From NCBI RefSeq assembly GCF_003334305.1, contig NZ_QOWS01000018.1: 64,000 nt of DNA; one strand, given 5' to 3'. The notes under the pieces were generated by a model. It saw only the letters and a list, made by a program, of their open reading frames with translations. It was not told the DNA's origin and did not search any database. Origin of the DNA: Escherichia coli (GTDB taxonomy: Bacteria > Pseudomonadota > Gammaproteobacteria > Enterobacterales > Enterobacteriaceae). Shown here piece after piece: positions 56,650 to 62,610 of the stretch (the stretch's first letter is position 1; each line of letters starts with the position of its first letter). Position numbers and translations under genes: made by a program.

Positions 56650-57008
56650 TGTTTTTTCCTCTTCTAAGCTAAAGTATTTCAGTTTTTAAAAAGCACACCT
56701 GACAGCCTATCTAAACTTAGAAGAGACTTAAAAGGCGGTTTGCCAAGTATGCTTTTTAAAAGCTGAAAAAGCCCTAGATAACTAAAACGCTATAAAGGGC
56801 TAAGGTGAAGAAATTAAAACATCTAAAGGATTCAATAACGAATGAACAAAGACTTTTCGAGATAGCCTCTCAGGTTGTATAAGAGGCCATGTAGCGAAAA
56901 GCATTGCACCTTTCAGAATGTTCGGTATAGAACATACCTCACCAACTCAGAATATCCATCCATCGGATTATTGAAATAAATAAGAGAGAAATTCTCTCTA
57001 TAATTAAA

Positions 57009-57037
57009 ATTATGTCATGCTTAAGGTTATTTGTCAA
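57009..57037 (-). promoter_or_regulatory. Near-consensus sigma70 promoter (TTGACA-17-CATAAT) reading toward the 236-aa gene
   Basis: Minus strand: TTGACA at 57032-57037, CATAAT at 57009-57014; palindrome AGAGAG-N5-CTCTCT at 56983-56999 near +1. Confidence 0.6.
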
Positions 57038-57062
57038 CAGCTTTTTAACAGATTGGTAACAT

Positions 57063-57128
57063 TTATACTTTAATAGATGCACCTGCAATCATACCAATCA
57101 ACACAAAACAGAGAATCACCAATTCCAT
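57063..57128 (-). CDS. Candidate 21-aa hydrophobic peptide, translationally coupled (TAATG) to the upstream 107-aa gene
   Basis: MELVILCFVLIGMIAGASIKV; ATG overlaps the preceding stop; not in track (too short). Confidence 0.25.
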   Translation of the reverse strand: MELVILCFVLIGMIAGASIKV

Positions 57129-57451
57129 TAATGCACCACCTTCGAATCCGTAACCAGAATATTATCGCTGTACAAAATTGCTATAGCCGCCTTGAGATAT
57201 TTTTCAGGGCTAACGCTGTATTTGTTCGTTTGCTCGACAACCAATCTTTTCATGTTGCTGTCTTTAATTGGTAGCATCATTCGAGGCTCGTTAAACTCCA
57301 CCGACTGAATAAAGTCAGAGATGCTTTCCGCATTATCAGTCATTAACTCTAACAACTTATCAAAGTCAATGCTAACACCTACATCAGTGAAAGCCTGAAT
57401 CATCATGGCGGTGTCGGTATCAATAAAAATCTGTAATTCGTAATTGTTCAT
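57128..57451 (-). CDS. Hypothetical protein (107 aa)
   Basis: Track ORF 57128..57484; I prefer ATG at 57451 preceded by AAGGAG-9nt. Confidence 0.55.
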   Translation of the reverse strand: MNNYELQIFIDTDTAMMIQAFTDVGVSIDFDKLLELMTDNAESISDFIQSVEFNEPRMMLPIKDSNMKRLVVEQTNKYSVSPEKYLKAAIAILYSDNILVTDSKVVH

Positions 57452-57606
57452 TTTTAAAATCTCCTTTTTACCAGACCTCCTCAATCGCTCTGTAACGAGC
57501 TAAACAGTCTTTTTCAGGGGTAGCCTGTACAGTGGTATTACCCACCCTAAAATAAGATAGTTTTTTGCGTCAGAATGCGATTGAGAGCGTCTGAGAAGCT
57601 GTTTTT

Positions 57607-57894
57607 CTAATTTCTCTTAAAGTCTCGGACTTGCATAAGATTTTTTGGTCTGGTATCGGCTCTGTTACCATTTCGATGGATAATTTGCTTGTTGGATTGA
57701 TAGCCATGATAAAGAAACCAGACAACATATTTCACGTAGAAAGTATATCGGCCTATATTAAATGTTTTGTTGCCGTAGTCGTCGGTGTTTATCGTGACTG
57801 ACTCTCCATCAGACCAGCACAGGGAATCACTGGATTCATCATAGATAAGGTGTTCTGCAAAATATCTTCTAACATCTTCATTCCAAGGTTTCAT
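57607..57894 (-). CDS. HNH endonuclease-like protein (95 aa)
   Basis: KYVVWFLYHGYQSNKQIIHRNGNRADTRPKNL matches the HNH_3-type pattern; ATGA overlap with upstream ORF. Confidence 0.65.
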   Translation of the reverse strand: MKPWNEDVRRYFAEHLIYDESSDSLCWSDGESVTINTDDYGNKTFNIGRYTFYVKYVVWFLYHGYQSNKQIIHRNGNRADTRPKNLMQVRDFKRN

Positions 57895-58106
57895 AAAACC
57901 TCCTCACCCCAATAACCTAATTCAATCTTGTGACGCTCAAACCATTCCGGTTTAACTGCTGTTTTCAGTACTTCATTTGGGCCAATGGCTTTAATGAAAA
58001 TATCTTTTGAGTTATGGATGTCACCGAATCCGTTTCCTTCAATCAGGAGGTCGGAGATGTAGCGAATCATTTTATCCGTGTGGTATTCAAAGGTAACGCA
58101 TAGCAT
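57891..58106 (-). CDS. Hypothetical protein (71 aa)
   Basis: Track ORF; coupled between the RHH-like and HNH genes. Confidence 0.5.
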   Translation of the reverse strand: MLCVTFEYHTDKMIRYISDLLIEGNGFGDIHNSKDIFIKAIGPNEVLKTAVKPEWFERHKIELGYWGEEVL

Positions 58107-59971: not shown

Positions 59972-60640
59972 TCAGCCCAACCTTTGAACAATCTTGTAAG
60001 TGGTGCTTAGAGGCATTCTTAGCGATTCTGCGATGCTCTTGACGGATTGCCCTTGGCCATGCAGTTTAATCAGCCTGTCAAGCGTCTGTGCATCGTGTAT
60101 ATGAGGTCTTCCACGTAAACCACCCCTGTTAACCACGGCAAGTAAAAGCATTGTGTCGCCACAATAGATTGTTTGTGTAACTTCAACCTTCGGTTTACGG
60201 GGTGTGTTCCTGTATATCAAAACGCAACTTGCAAACGGTGAACGCACTACAACACCTTTCTTCCCTGCTGGTGGAAGGTATTTGACTGCTCGGTGTAACG
60301 TTCGAATCTCATGCAGAAAGGGGTTTGTATATACACACCGAAGCCAGTAAGTTGTCTTTGACCTGTGCGGAACCAGACATACACACACATCAGCTTCATG
60401 GGATTTTAGGAGGAACCTTTCAGCCATGCTAAACGGCGGGTTAACGAAGACCCGTTCACCAACCCATGATTGATTGTGAATATCATCGGTGAACCGTGGC
60501 AACAATGCGTCATGCTCAGTTGCAGCACCATCCATCGAAAAACCAAATTCACGGTGTAGGTTACGAAATAAACGATACGGTGTACGCCAGTCATCAGAAC
60601 CACCATGATAACGACCGACATTGATTATTGGATGTGACAC
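59972..60640 (-). CDS. Phage Dam-like N6-adenine DNA methyltransferase fused to C-terminal HTH (222 aa, GTG start)
   Basis: DDWRTPYRLF...FGFSMDGAA...VFVNPPFS (NPPF catalytic motif); C-terminal DAQTLDRLIKLHGQGQSVKSIAESLRMPLSTTYKIVQRLG resembles resolvase-type HTH. Confidence 0.7.
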   Translation of the reverse strand: MSHPIINVGRYHGGSDDWRTPYRLFRNLHREFGFSMDGAATEHDALLPRFTDDIHNQSWVGERVFVNPPFSMAERFLLKSHEADVCVCLVPHRSKTTYWLRCVYTNPFLHEIRTLHRAVKYLPPAGKKGVVVRSPFASCVLIYRNTPRKPKVEVTQTIYCGDTMLLLAVVNRGGLRGRPHIHDAQTLDRLIKLHGQGQSVKSIAESLRMPLSTTYKIVQRLG

Positions 60641-61176
60641 AAGCGAAGCGCCCCTCTTAGTATATTTCTTAATCGTCTCTTTAGCATTTAGTGCTTTTTG
60701 TTAAGTTTAGCACTTTTTGCTAAAGACAAAACACTTGACAAAATGGTAAGATTGTTCACATGACCTTACTTAACAGATTCTTAAGAGCTTTGAAACGAAC
60801 TGTTTAACAAGGTCACTACCTCTGGTCTTATCGTTCCCTCTCTTCTTGGTAGTTCTGTTAAGTATCTTTTCAGGTATCTCTTACAGTCACTGTTAAGATA
60901 GAACCTACCTTCGGTTTCATGGTTCTCTTCCTCCCGTTAAATATCCCTTCACAGTCAGACTAAATAACACCTCTGTAGTTTCTTGGTAGAATCTTTCAAG
61001 GTAACTTAACTCTGAGTTTATGAAGTTGACCTTAGTCAATGTTTGTGAAGGTGTTACAGAGCATGTTCTCTAGGTCTGTGTAGCTCACTAAGCGAGAGAG
61101 GGGATATGTGACCATAGGGGAACCCCTCCTGTTAAAAGTTTCTTGATGTTATCATCACAATATGTATAATCACCAA

Positions 61177-61337
61177 CTGTACAGACACCTTAACGGTTTC
61201 TCTACACCTCACTATGGCTAGGTAGGGTATGGTTTAGCTTGGTACGGCTAGGTTAGGTCTGGTTTGGTTAGGTATGGGTGGATTGTCGTAGCCACGTTAA
61301 AAATCGACTTATAGGGACTCTTTCGGGAGTCCTTTTT
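61177..61337 (+). ncRNA. Candidate small RNA (about 160 nt) with tandem G/T-rich repeats
   Basis: Promoter TTGATG-16-TATAAT at 61143-61170; repeats at 61216-61281; terminator GGACTC-TTTCGG-GAGTCC-TTTTT at 61314-61337; no ORF. Confidence 0.35.
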
Positions 61338-61541
61338 AGTTTGTATAAAATCTGTACAGGAGTTATCAGGCTTCTAAAATTTTTATAAAAAATAATCAGA
61401 CCTCTTCTAAGCCTCTTCAACCAAATCTTTCGAAAATATCTGACAGATGTCTGTAGCTGCTAAGTACCCGTCACACCAGCTATGTGACCCCCTTGGCAAA
61501 AAAGCCAAATATCAGCTACATCCATGTAACTATTCAGTAAC

Positions 61542-62093
61542 TTATTTAGCAAGTCTGTAATAAGTTGCTCTAGAGATTCCTAACTCTTCCTGAATCTGCA
61601 ACCTCGTCTTACCTTGTGAAATAAGCGTCTGTACAGCCTCTGAAGAAGCCTTTACAGGCCTCCCCATATGTACCCCTTCAGCTTTAGCACGTTCAATACC
61701 AGCCTTTCTACGCTCTGCTATCAAGCTTCTTTCAAGCTGTGCCAACGTTGACATAATGCCTAACATTGCTTCACCCATAGCGCTTGATAAGTCAAACCCT
61801 TCTCTAAGGCTGATAACTGTCACACCTTTAGCCTGTAGCGCTTTAACCGTTGATAACACATCAATTGTGTCACGTCCAAGACGGTCTACAGCTACCACAA
61901 CTACGGTGTCACCTTCTCGTGCATAAGCTAACAAACTACTGAAACCGTTTCTTAAAGAAGCTTTGACAGAACCACTGACAGCTTCATCAGTGAACCATTT
62001 AGCAATGTTGTACCCTGCCTCTTCAATTTGCATTTGCTGGTTAGTGATGGATTGGTCATCTGTACTCACCCTGCAATATCCAAGTATCGCCAT
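61542..62093 (-). CDS. Small serine recombinase of the resolvase/invertase family (183 aa)
   Basis: MAILGYCRVSTDDQ catalytic motif, C-terminal HTH; GGGGGA RBS. Confidence 0.85.
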   Translation of the reverse strand: MAILGYCRVSTDDQSITNQQMQIEEAGYNIAKWFTDEAVSGSVKASLRNGFSSLLAYAREGDTVVVVAVDRLGRDTIDVLSTVKALQAKGVTVISLREGFDLSSAMGEAMLGIMSTLAQLERSLIAERRKAGIERAKAEGVHMGRPVKASSEAVQTLISQGKTRLQIQEELGISRATYYRLAK

Positions 62094-62108
62094 ACATCCC
62101 CCTTAGAA

Positions 62109-62230
62109 GTCTCAAAAGTTAGTCTCATAAGTTTAGCTGTCTCATAATCCAAAAACAACCTTTTGAGACTACTTGAGGGTGCATTCTACCGTTACGTTGA
62201 AAGTGTCTCAAAAGGAAGTCCTTTTAAGAC
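62109..62230. promoter_or_regulatory. res-like recombination site: six GTCTCA(A/T)AAG half-sites in direct and inverted pairs
   Basis: Half-sites at 62109, 62122, 62139 (forward), 62161 (reverse), 62195 (forward), 62221 (reverse); fit TGTCYNNTA-type resolvase sites. Confidence 0.55.
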
Positions 62231-62610
62231 TGGTTATGAAGGAGCTATGAAGATTTTAGGAGGGTAACTATAACCATCACTTTCTAACTTTCACGTAGGA
62301 AATCGTTAAGTTTCTTGATAGTTACACCATGTGACCAACTATCTATATATCGTTATATAGCCCTGTATATAACACTTTTCTAGGAGTCGAGAGAGGGACG
62401 ACTAACACGATACAGTTTACCCTGAAAAGAGACTTCACAGATTCTCTATATATTTCAATAAGTTAGGCTAAAAAGAGACTATACCGATACTGTATAGAAT
62501 CTGTGTAGAATTGCTTAGATACTTGGAAAAATGCCTTTAAATTGAATAGGTACTAACCTGTTTATGTCCTGTTATTAACAGGTAGTTGAATGTACGTGTT
62601 TAGCTATGTA

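Follow-up and report, generated by a model that had tools for sequence, protein, structure and literature searches.

Does the AGAGA…TCTCT inverted repeat that recurs beside TATA-like words in a chromosomal island of Escherichia coli mark the operators of one island-encoded regulator, as a preliminary description of the locus had proposed? The window, i.e., the whole 64-kb stretch of DNA that was analysed, was searched for AGAGA-N(1-10)-TCTCT, and the pattern was confined to the four places named in that description, each within a few bases of the position first assigned; the recurrence is real. It is best explained by two unrelated features taken together, an RNA hairpin (site 1) and a DNA module (sites 2–4). 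We tentatively favour a leader hairpin and cis-acting DNA modules within a probable satellite of Felix O1-like phages.

The island and its proposed leader hairpin

The integrative island of ~11.9 kb (50670–62617) at the 5' end of wrbA was delimited from annotation, flanks and the att core AAAGCAC (50663–50669 and 62611–62617), and is integrated by a large serine recombinase. The island family was present in ~552 of 5426 complete E. coli genomes (about 10%), and an excised form is seen in a metagenome, where contig L028 is a circle of 11,233 bp with window positions 50663 and 62620 joined. Replication, capsid and terminase genes were not recognised within the island. Its tape measure protein (53330–55498, minus strand), assigned by homology to the Felixounavirus tape measure, was 43% identical to the phage protein over the N-terminal 78 residues and 30% identical over residues 191–722 (range 29–43% against Felixounavirus proteins); the baseplate/hub-like protein (52385–53194, minus strand) was 72–73% identical to that of the Felixounavirus gene directly downstream of the tape measure gene. 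On this sequence evidence the island is a probable phage satellite, whose helpers would be Felix O1-like phages.

The leftward operon p236 - p71 - tape measure - baseplate/hub is headed by a near-consensus sigma-70 promoter, TTGACA-17-CATAAT (57009–57037, minus strand), with 11 of 12 consensus matches and invariant in relatives. Site 1, AGAGAGAAATTCTCTCT at 56983–56999, is a perfect 8+1+8 inverted repeat beginning 9 nt 3' of the promoter -10 on the minus strand, at +1, and its transcript, AGAGAGAA-T-TTCTCTCT, was assigned from folding and covariation as a 5'-terminal hairpin of the operon transcript. The 21 sequence variants within 51 loci all fold (-6.4 to -11.2 kcal/mol), 93.8% of the stem cells in the alignment of relatives are paired, and stem covariation was 0.274 vs 0.204, a level reached by none of 500 shuffles. 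We read site 1 as a 5' RNA leader hairpin, in preference to a DNA palindrome acting as an operator, because the stem varies by compensatory changes (one pair passes from G-C to A-U in 5 sequences) and by G·U pairs, which are common, and TATAGAGA itself occurs at this site in only 7 of the 51 relatives. Many variants begin GGGAGAG; in some a U-rich tract follows, so that they resemble weak terminators, and in others it does not.

Standing at the very start of the mRNA, the stem-loop would most likely be a 5'-terminal stabiliser, and in some variants it could serve as a weak attenuator. As with the stabilising stem-loops of the ompA 5' UTR and the T7 phi10 leader, the hairpin lies within a few nt of the predicted start and has been maintained, here by compensatory change. 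It differs from the T7 phi10 case, where the promoter is that of a phage RNA polymerase, in having no such promoter, and from both in that its variants are partly terminator-like and partly not; its role is predicted from sequence.

The repeated module and the phage terminal repeat

Sites 2–4 were copies of one ~55–75 bp module composed of TTTTTCAATRAGTTGTAAT, a TATAWA box and two 8-bp boxes, CTGACAAG-N3-CTTCACAG. The single class first proposed does not hold: the sites at 59531, 59626 and 62453 are one module, and site 1 is a separate hairpin class. Copy 1 (59484–59561, plus strand) comprises an A/T tract, TTTTTCAATGAGTTGTAAT, the TATA box ATATATAGAGAA (59531–59542) and the boxes CTGACAAG-TCT-CTTCACAA (59543–59561); copy 2 (59579–59656, plus strand), 95 bp downstream of copy 1, has ATATATAGAGAA at 59626–59637 and the boxes CTGACAAG-TCT-CTTCACGG at 59638–59656, and in most relatives is of another type, e.g., TATAATAG-CTGTTCAG. 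AGAGA-N9-TCTCT falls at 59537–59555 (site 2) and 59632–59650 (site 3). Site 4 (62420–62467, minus strand), AACTTATTGAA-A-TATATAGAGAAT-CTGTGAAG-TCT-CTTTTCAG, is an inverted module near the right end, strongly conserved in 44 loci, with ATATATAGAGAA at 62442–62453 (minus strand) and AGAGA-N10-TCTCT at 62428–62447. Its region contains TTTCAATAAGTTA, a putative IHF site by its resemblance, judged by eye, to the consensus; its TATA[G/A]AGA is polymorphic, the G of TATAGAGA being A in most relatives. The sharing of TTCAATAAGTT between repeat copy 2 and the right-end site, noted earlier, was confirmed, but in the two it stands in a different orientation to the TATAGAG word and at a different distance from it. 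A degenerate partner of site 4 in the opposite orientation, TATAGAATCTGTGTAG (62491–62510, plus strand), is conserved in relatives and pairs with 62433–62448 as a 16-nt inverted repeat. A fourth box pair, CTGTTAAG-TAT-CTTTTCAG (60855–60873), is without a TATA box; a phage terminal-repeat iteron matches its left half and flank, and 60845–60867 has 91% identity with the terminal repeat of phage NBEco004.

Conservation was judged across ~60 related islands, each with 1, 2 or 3 module copies. Throughout 104 copies in 60 loci, TTTTTCAATRAGTTGTAAT and CTTCACAG were almost invariant and the TATA box and left box varied, the conserved parts being TTTTTCAATRAGTTGTAAT, the TATAWA box and CTG..AG-N3-CTTCACAG. 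Spacing from the TTCAAT block to the TATAWA box was fixed at 16–17 bp, while the distance to the boxes varied by 2–5 bp. The palindrome itself was not conserved: the AGAGA/TCTCT arms were fully complementary in just 36 of the 104 copies, and 53 copies retained at most 2 of 5 complementary positions. The symmetry may be a by-product of the TATAGAG word adjoining a pyrimidine-rich spacer between the boxes.

Downstream of the tandem copies, a non-coding segment (59689–59790, plus strand) is homologous to the Felixounavirus terminal-repeat region, and within it a 51-nt stretch (59717–59767) matches the NBEco004 terminal repeat at every position (100% identity). A second cluster (60769–60867, plus strand) is made of fragments (CTTAACAGATTCTTAA; TTAACAAGGTCACTACCTCTGGTCTTATCGTTCCCT) that resemble the terminal repeat and the non-coding DNA next to it. 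Within the 1.8-kb non-coding region of phage REP8, on which the flanking genes converge, the top enriched 7-mers were TATAGAG and TATATAG (47-fold), then TTGTTAG and TAACAAG; these words were enriched within the island non-coding regions (12 vs 3.7±2.2 and 14 vs 4.0±2.5) and were not enriched within its coding regions. The putative helper carries oriented arrays of 7–8 bp words at ~11-bp spacing in and beside the terminal repeat. The terminal-repeat iterons, CTTAACAG and CTAACAAG, share a single strand, and the island boxes, CTTCACAG and CTGACAAG, consistently depart from them by one base. The pattern TATA-box + CTG + CTT[AC]ACAG, which was defined after the phage element had been seen, occurs once within the 85.7-kb phage, in its non-coding region (0/100 genome shuffles; 0/2000 shuffles of the non-coding region). 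This module-like element is conserved in 252 phage records; in phage E9, which has a linear record with identical 580-bp ends, its position is ~230 bp inside the left terminal repeat. The resemblance of phage and island is one of words and layout.

Our best reading, partly inferred from these sequence comparisons, is that the modules at 59484–59656 (tandem) and 62420–62467 (inverted) are DNA-level cis-acting sites for helper-dependent DNA processing. Each would offer an A/T-rich IHF-like block, the TATAWA box and two iteron-like 8-bp boxes, sharing vocabulary and rough layout with the conserved single-copy terminal-repeat element of Felixounavirus. A sequence-specific DNA-binding protein, which could be the helper's own or the island's TraY-like p93 acting with host IHF, would engage the excised island at the modules and so promote helper-dependent replication and/or packaging; helper dependence, the processing function and the identity of this protein are the inferred parts. 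The island probably exploits Felix O1-like phages. Several observations weigh against this reading: the exact module was not present in any phage record or virome contig examined; the one-base difference between boxes and iterons may mean that a different protein reads the island boxes; the 51-nt terminal-repeat fragment was found in just 16 of 61 module-bearing relatives, usually ~100–140 nt past the last module; and the fixed 16–17 bp spacing, with a perfect TATAAT in 20 of the 104 copies, is a sigma-70 promoter trait.

Mimicry of helper cis-sites is familiar from P4, which carries a P2-type cos, and from the pac or cos sites of SaPI/PICI elements, and the Vibrio cholerae PLE parasitises the virulent myovirus ICP1. 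Like these satellites, the island is small (~12 kb), recombinase-integrated (by a large serine recombinase, as in PLE), devoid of recognisable capsid, terminase and replication genes, and excised as a circle; some of its DNA and genes likewise come from one phage genus, and its non-coding DNA reuses words and fragments of a terminal, packaging-related phage region. Its putative helper, Felixounavirus, is virulent with direct terminal repeats, and our literature search found no published description of a satellite of this genus. The island differs from P4, SaPIs and PLE in bringing its own tape measure and hub genes, to our knowledge a feature of none of them, and its mimicry would be by words and layout rather than by a copied cos or pac site. 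We know of no defined replication origins or packaging signals of Felix O1-like phages. The putative helper's short oriented word arrays, within its terminal repeat and next to it, are reminiscent of the SRL/SRR repeat arrays of T7, a phage with direct terminal repeats, and the island's tandem promoter-like modules followed by gene-free non-coding DNA recall the promoter-type replication origins T7 phi1.1A/B and T4 oriF/oriG. The temporal regulation of Felix O1-like phages is unknown, and they encode no RNA polymerase (PMC3185647).

Alternative roles for the modules and the question of a regulator

A serious rival, which we nevertheless hold to be somewhat unlikely, modifies the idea first proposed: the modules would be sigma-70 promoters coupled to operators for an island repressor such as p93. 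A UP-like A/T tract, a -35 TTCAAT, a 16–17 bp spacer and a -10 TATAWA would precede an operator at ~+1 to +20, made up of either the box pair or the AGAGA/TCTCT symmetry. The tail-operon promoter would have an operator of its own at +1, namely site 1. Transcription from the modules would yield non-coding or antisense RNAs and, at the right end, expression of the recombinase genes. The conserved -35 to -10 spacing with a variable -10-to-box distance fits such a role, as do the type C copies (20 of the 104, in which the perfect TATAAT stands 17 bp after TTCAAT) and the position of site 1 exactly at +1 of a strong promoter; in the excised circle, transcription from the rightward partner at 62491 would cross attP and enter the integrase gene. 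However, most copies are without the final T of the -10 hexamer (TATATA, TATAAA) and were not called by a promoter scan, the right-end module has no -35 element, and the rightward modules are followed by no ORF and no terminator that we could find, the RNA downstream folding only marginally better than shuffles (z = -1.9). The arms are unconserved, and if site 1 were a DNA palindrome its G·U pairs would amount to G·T mismatches. The same words also cluster between convergent phage genes, and because the genes flanking that region converge, the words are not gene promoters in the phage.

The candidate for an element-encoded regulator or site-recognition protein is p93 (58106–58387, minus strand), predicted from its structure model and fold matches to be a tandem ribbon-helix-helix DNA-binding protein. 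The fold is confidently modelled (pLDDT 90.5, two beta-alpha-alpha repeats), its best structural matches being DndE and F-plasmid relaxosome chains, which we take to be TraY (E about 0.02–0.08; TM 0.5–0.6), and the operon of p93 also contains an HNH nuclease gene. Short subsites of the TAGA/GAGA type are recognised by ribbon-helix-helix proteins, Arc and TraY among them, and this also favours the promoter/operator role. Against it, the first beta strand of p93 is invariant; its DNA-contacting strand residues showed no co-variation with the forms of the motif, nor did the variable residues that follow the second strand track them. Of the proposed operator network under one regulator, what survives is a candidate protein and a shared DNA-binding factor, plausible given that sites 2–4 repeat one longer module; no tie between sites and regulator emerged, and the same words, with a module-like element beside the putative helper's terminal repeat, suggest a helper-related cis function at least as strongly. 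TraY reads GA(G/T)A subsites and, with IHF, prepares DNA for a nuclease; the F-plasmid oriT complex resembles the island in its tandem ribbon-helix-helix protein (predicted for p93) and in combining IHF-consensus-like sequence with GAGA-containing DNA. It differs in that the structural match of p93 is weak (E about 0.02, TM 0.5–0.6), the island has neither relaxase nor conjugation genes, and the GAGA part is the least conserved portion of the module.

It is improbable that the small serine recombinase of resolvase/invertase type (61542–62093, minus strand) binds or performs crossover at the box pairs CTGNNAAG-N3-CTTNNCAG at 59543, 59638, 60855 and 62422, whether for an invertible segment (Hin/Gin type) or for res-like resolution. 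The gene lies between the inverted pairs at 60855 and 62422, as in Hin/Gin/Cin/Pin segments, and is bracketed by a 21-nt inverted repeat (90% complementary); quasi-palindromes of this form concentrate within the island (10 of 11 window matches), and module copy numbers of 1, 2 or 3 are what direct-site recombination would yield. Both the recombinase and a methyltransferase end, by eye, in GRP plus a helix-turn-helix segment, and the Hin-like tail of the latter is another possible reader of the pairs. Yet neither predicted inversion junction occurred in the ~552 island-bearing genomes, and 9 of 9 aligned relatives were collinear. Hin-family sites are 26-bp dyads with a 2-bp core, whereas these span 19 bp around an odd centre of 3 bp (5 bp at the left site of locus L002); the dyad is weaker with the left-box variants CTGTTCAG and CTGTCCAG, and some islands (L013) keep the sites where the gene is absent or replaced.

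That the four occurrences reflect AT-rich low-complexity DNA plus one tandem duplication is very improbable: two of the four sites are indeed copies of a single duplication, and plain TATAGAG without the duplicate was modestly enriched (5 vs 1.9 expected; 28/500 shuffles), but every site falls in non-coding DNA, within a block that is kept in 44 to 104 related copies, and the composite motif was not reached in 500 shuffles, also with the duplicate removed. TATAGAGA-N(0-12)-TCTCT occurred 4 times within the island vs 0.01 expected for DNA of this AT-rich composition (0/500 shuffles), or 3 vs 0.00 with the tandem repeat counted once. TATAGAGA itself numbered 6 vs 0.75 expected in the whole window (0/100 shuffles), 5 vs 0.64 within the AT-rich island alone (0/500), and 4 vs 0.61 there with the tandem repeat taken as one (3/500). 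The shuffles and the conservation in relatives together effectively refute a chance origin of the motif.

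Gene content of the island and its kinship with Felixounavirus

The motif sites examined here fall within an integrative island of ~11.9 kb (50670-62617) that lies integrated at the 5' end of wrbA; both island ends share the att core AAAGCAC (50663-50669 and 62611-62617). The start and N-terminus of wrbA are newly supplied by the island. A large serine recombinase is encoded on the + strand (50745-52388); the - strand carries the genes for a baseplate/hub-like protein (52385-53194), a tape measure protein (53330-55498), a Dam-like methyltransferase (59972-60640) and a small serine recombinase (61542-62093). 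Between the tape measure and methyltransferase genes are small proteins of no assigned function, followed by an HNH nuclease, and about one quarter of the island is non-coding. The tape measure and hub were the only recognisable virion genes. Capsid, terminase, replication and known defence families had no match among the island proteins, and p236, p184, p118 and both 71-residue proteins gave no informative match in Pfam, PHROGs, NCBIfam, PADLOC and PDB sequence searches.

The island was carried by ~552 of 5426 complete E. coli genomes. Its relatives occupied at least three insertion sites, each with different large serine recombinases, and homologues of one island protein were found in E. coli, E. 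albertii, Citrobacter and Salmonella, overlapping the recorded host genera of Felixounavirus. About 69 related loci were gathered from complete genomes, species-representative genomes, IMG/VR and metagenomes. One of these, the circular metagenome contig L028 (11,233 bp, 55-bp end overlap), joined both island ends at AAAGCAC (L028 5400-5520), and thus an excised circle exists in nature.

The hub-like protein was 72-73% identical to the product of the Felixounavirus gene that immediately follows the tape measure gene. For the tape measure protein, identity to the Felixounavirus counterpart was 29-32% overall and 43% over the N-terminal 78 residues. Recombination between a Felixounavirus tape measure gene and an E. 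coli chromosomal gene outside recognised prophages has been described (PMC11069274). Felix O1-like phages have direct terminal repeats of ~580 bp (PMC8303462; PMC11737134); in the linear record of phage E9 the two 580-bp ends are identical and align with a 628-bp unit present in two tandem copies in the NBEco004 record. Non-coding island DNA 3' of the repeated modules described below matched Felixounavirus non-coding DNA: the 51 nt at 59717-59767 were 100% identical to the phage terminal repeat, two fragments within 60769-60867 matched the terminal repeat itself, and 60804-60839 was a 92% match to the non-coding DNA adjoining the repeat in phage REP8.

The two regions also shared vocabulary. 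In the 1.8-kb non-coding region of REP8 that holds the terminal repeat, the 7-mers most enriched relative to the rest of the genome were TATAGAG and TATATAG (47-fold each), with TTGTTAG and TAACAAG next. This word set was enriched in the island non-coding segments 58944-59971 (12 vs 3.7±2.2) and 60641-61541 (14 vs 4.0±2.5), with no enrichment in island coding DNA or chromosomal DNA. The phage genes flanking the REP8 region converge upon it, so that the words in it are unlikely to serve as promoters of genes; a phage late or middle promoter was likewise rejected, as regions upstream of REP8 genes had no TATAGAG-type box and TATAGAG outside the non-coding region fell within coding sequence only. 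Separately, GTCGTAGCCACGTTAAAAATCG at 61293-61316 resembles the terminal-repeat boundary (GGTAGCCCTTAACATCC; GCTAGCCACCTTAACATTT) and was invariant in a relative whose adjoining sequence differs; the resemblance is weak and may be due to chance.

The island is a small integrative element with a recombinase, its set of virion and replication genes is incomplete, it is tied specifically to one putative helper lineage through both genes and cis sequence, and it excises and circularises. From these features it appears to be a satellite of virulent phages of the Felix O1 kind, upon which it would depend as helpers, and it would belong with the phage satellites that show helper cis-site mimicry; it is possibly instead a defence element that interferes with tails. 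Our literature search for satellites of Felix O1-like phages found no paper, and the island, common and apparently undescribed, borrows both tail genes and terminal-repeat vocabulary from these phages. If it does copy the words flanking their terminal repeat and carry their tail genes, it adds an E. coli counterpart to PLE-ICP1, a satellite of a virulent phage.

Modules at three of the four AGAGA/TCTCT sites

AGAGA-N(1-10)-TCTCT had just four occurrences in the 64-kb window, at 56983, 59537, 59632 and 62428, in agreement with the four places named in the preliminary description: site 1 (56983-56999, - strand), sites 2 and 3 in a tandem repeat (copies at 59484-59561 and 59579-59656, + strand), and site 4 (62420-62467, - strand). 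The preliminary description had read them as an operator network for one island-encoded regulator. The recurring motif is real, but the reading as operators of one regulator is right only in part. No one palindrome was conserved across all four sites; a single repressor calls for one palindromic recognition sequence kept everywhere, and site 1 was unlike sites 2-4. The island does encode a candidate for such a regulator, the protein p93 described below.

Site 4 and both repeats, which had been called 75-bp repeats and are spaced 95 bp apart, share a longer module, ATATATAGAGAA(T)CTG(AC/TG)AAGTCTCTT(TT)CA(C/G)GG. Among 104 copies of the repeat, drawn from 60 loci, TTTTTCAATRAGTTGTAAT and CTTCACAG were near-invariant; the TATA box was ATAGAGAA in 41 copies, TATAATAG in 20, ATAAAGGA in 15 and ATATAAGA/G in 17, and the left of two 8-bp boxes was CTGACAAG in 59, CTGTTCAG in 22 and CTGTCCAG in 17. 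The AGAGA/TCTCT arms were fully complementary in 36 of the 104 copies, and in 53 at most two of five positions were complementary. Site 4 was strongly conserved (44 loci), with TATAAAGA commoner there than TATAGAGA (G to A). Given this weak arm complementarity and the G/A variation at site 4, the AGAGA/TCTCT palindrome is not the conserved feature; for annotation, the lesson is that a neat palindrome can arise from two adjacent unrelated elements. Copy 1 was of the TATAGAGAA type and copy 2 of another type in most islands; the two identical types in the window are unusual. Site 4 has a degenerate partner in opposite orientation (62491-62510, inverted repeat I20), and a sequence like the IHF consensus was noticed by eye within the modules. 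RNA structure downstream of the modules was unconvincing (z = -1.9 vs shuffles), and an Rfam search gave nothing but one chance-level match.

We compared the module with the phage terminal-repeat region. The terminal repeat is dense in CTTAACAG and CTAACAAG, on a single strand and frequently spaced by 11 bp, and the island boxes CTTCACAG and CTGACAAG are one base off these phage words; TATAGAG clusters occupy ~450 bp of unique DNA on each flank of the repeat. One phage element has the module layout, TTCACT-17-TATATA-GACTG-N10-CTTAACAG (783-837 in the record of vB_EcoM_E9, L079; ~7180-7210 in that of REP8, L014), with TATAGAG clusters on its flanks. The pattern occurred once in the 85.7-kb phage genome and in 0/100 genome shuffles and 0/2000 shuffles of the non-coding region, a test that is post hoc because the pattern was defined after the phage element was seen. 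This non-coding, single-copy, unannotated element lies ~230 bp inside the left terminal repeat, pointing towards the repeat, and was conserved in 252 Felixounavirus records (at least 95% identity in 209 of the 252). We regard it as a candidate for the packaging signal or origin of these phages. The replication origin, packaging signal and temporal regulation of Felix O1-like phages are not known (PMC3185647), and if the island does copy words flanking the terminal repeat along with tail genes, it points to the location of these phage signals.

We tentatively propose that the modules would act at the DNA level, as recognition sites for replication and/or packaging of the excised island during Felix O1-like infection, with recognition by a protein of the helper or by proteins that the island encodes. 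A candidate reader is the 93-residue island protein p93 (58106-58387, - strand), encoded in one operon with a 95-residue HNH nuclease. A confident structure model (pLDDT 90.5) gives p93 two beta-alpha-alpha repeats and the predicted fold of a tandem ribbon-helix-helix protein; the best structural matches to p93 were DndE and chains of the F-plasmid relaxosome, which we take to be TraY. No co-variation was seen between p93 strand residues and motif variants. Virion-derived contigs with packaged termini were sought and none was found, the IMG/VR matches being predicted prophage regions of isolate genomes; the metagenome scan for packaged termini gave one circular contig with no termini.

The main rival reading, somewhat less likely than the one proposed, is that the modules are instead the island's own promoters with downstream operators. 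They carry TTCAAT-16/17-TATAWA, with this spacing held at 16-17 bp and the distance to the boxes variable, and 20 of the 104 copies have a perfect TATAAT; however, most copies are without the final T of the -10 and were not called as promoters, the modules have no following gene, and the AGAGA/TCTCT arms that would form the operator are not conserved. Promoter-type origins occur in T7 and T4, and the two readings could merge if the modules were origins of this type.

The box pairs were considered as sites for a recombinase. The AGAGA/TCTCT arms overlap quasi-palindromes, CTGNNAAG-N3-CTTNNCAG, at 59543, 59638, 60855 and 62422, and an invertible segment was suspected because the pairs at 60855 and 62422 bracket the small recombinase gene (61542-62093). 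The 21-nt arms of inverted repeat I2 (60854-60874 and 62421-62441) lie around this gene, giving inverted sites that flank a segment beside an invertase-type gene, as for Hin and Gin. The two predicted inversion junctions were built and sought in all complete E. coli genomes; neither was present in any of the ~552 island-bearing genomes and all aligned relatives were collinear, and an invertible segment of the Hin/Gin family was rejected as an active switch. Hin-family sites are ~26-bp dyads with a 2-bp central crossover, whereas each island site is built as 8+3+8 bp around an odd centre (the left site of relative L002 has a 5-bp spacer), and a role for the box pairs as recombinase sites seems improbable.

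Chance was weighed by counting. The word TATAGAGA was observed 6 times in the window vs 0.75 expected, and 5 times in the AT-rich island vs 0.64 expected (0/500 shuffles); TATAGAGA-N(0-12)-TCTCT was observed 4 times vs 0.01 expected, or 3 vs 0.00 with the tandem repeat counted once (0/500 shuffles). The preliminary description was prepared to give up the motif at a frequency no higher than that of AT-rich DNA; the motif survives, since its counts exceed those of shuffled sequence, and a chance origin of the four occurrences is scarcely credible.

Returning to the proposal that the modules serve DNA processing, its fullest form is that the island is the first described member of a widespread family of satellites of virulent Felix O1-like myoviruses, with its own tape measure and hub, replicated and/or packaged through promoter-like TATAGAG/iteron modules that imitate the conserved element beside the direct terminal repeat of the helper and thereby revealing the Felixounavirus packaging or origin signal. 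We hold this whole to be less likely than not; such a family would be present in ~10% of E. coli genomes, plus Salmonella, Citrobacter and E. albertii. Felix O1-like phages are in use for Salmonella typing, biocontrol and therapy, and an island that copies the words beside their terminal repeat and carries their tail genes would probably be a parasite or a defence element, able to cut phage efficacy in about one strain in ten.

A hairpin at the predicted start of the tail-operon message

Site 1 lies at the predicted +1 of a promoter, TTGACA-17-CATAAT (57037-57009), with 11/12 consensus matches and invariant in relatives; the overlap with a promoter element that the preliminary description noted does hold for this site. 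The inverted repeat itself had 21 sequence versions among relatives, including AGAGAGA/TCTCTCT, GAGAG/CTCTC, GGAGA/TCTCC, GGAAGAG/CTCTTCC and GGGAG/CTCCC, and all of them fold (-6.4 to -11.2 kcal/mol). When 17 distinct versions were aligned, 93.8% of cells were paired, and the covariation score was 0.274 vs 0.204 in shuffles (0/500). One pair of the stem changed from G-C to A-U in five sequences, a compensatory change near the predicted transcript start, and G·U pairs were common. The word TATAGAGA occurred at site 1 in only 7 of 51 loci, with TAT(A)GGGAGAG in most; in relatives with a 35-nt insertion a different hairpin occupies the first place after the -10. We read site 1 as an RNA stem-loop at the 5' terminus of the tail-gene operon mRNA, one of the four "operators" thus being an RNA hairpin, which is a second lesson for annotation. 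A DNA operator at site 1 is possible, but at the DNA level the G·U pairs would leave the palindrome mismatched.

The hairpin scored terminator-like in the window; about one third of its variants continue with TTGAATTAAA or TAAAATC in place of a U tract. A promoter for a T7-type single-subunit RNA polymerase (…TATAGGGAGA), suggested by TATAGGGAGAG in relatives, was rejected because only TATA and GGGAGAG are alike, positions -17 to -5 being unlike between sites, because the motif sits at the +1 of a sigma-70 promoter, and because Felix O1 is without an RNA polymerase gene (PMC3185647). Past the hairpin, the 5' UTR contains a tetranucleotide repeat, (GATG)n (56950-56965, - strand); 17 loci had two copies, 8 had three and 1 had five, and this tract of the tail-operon leader is possibly prone to slippage.

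Additional features of the island

Both the hub and the tape measure gene have as their upstream leader one copy of a 69-nt direct repeat (53254-53322 and 55517-55585; 88% identical), which holds an inverted CTACGTAAAT…ATTCACGTAG. The methyltransferase (59972-60640, - strand) ends in a C-terminal GRP and helix-turn-helix resembling the DNA-binding domain of the small serine recombinase, which suggests site-targeted methylation. A separate recurring motif, TCTTTAGCATTTNGTGCT, has two mutually inverted copies upstream of the methyltransferase gene (60678-60695 and 60709-60726) and a lone one upstream of the modules (59404-59421), with one or two copies in 57 of the 69 related loci; it looks closer to a classical operator than the AGAGA/TCTCT motif does.

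A small RNA is predicted at 61143-61340 (+ strand), with promoter TTGATG-16-TATAAT (61143-61170) and a strong terminator (61313-61334). Its body is GGT-rich and repetitive (GGTAGG, GGTTAGG), and in relatives the body varied and the promoter and terminator were kept. Strong promoters stand back to back at 58994-59059: a leftward TTGACA-17-TAGTAT (59022-58994), followed by a GTTAA-N7-TTAAC palindrome, and a rightward TTAACA-18-TATAAT with TG (59030-59059); together they are probably the main regulatory switch of the island. Past the rightward promoter is a ~50-bp hairpin cassette (…GGGGTTGGTACAAGCCCAACC…, 59101-59150) flanked by CTATG, and the same cassette is found near the right end of L002 (12690-12740), as if it were a small mobile insertion.
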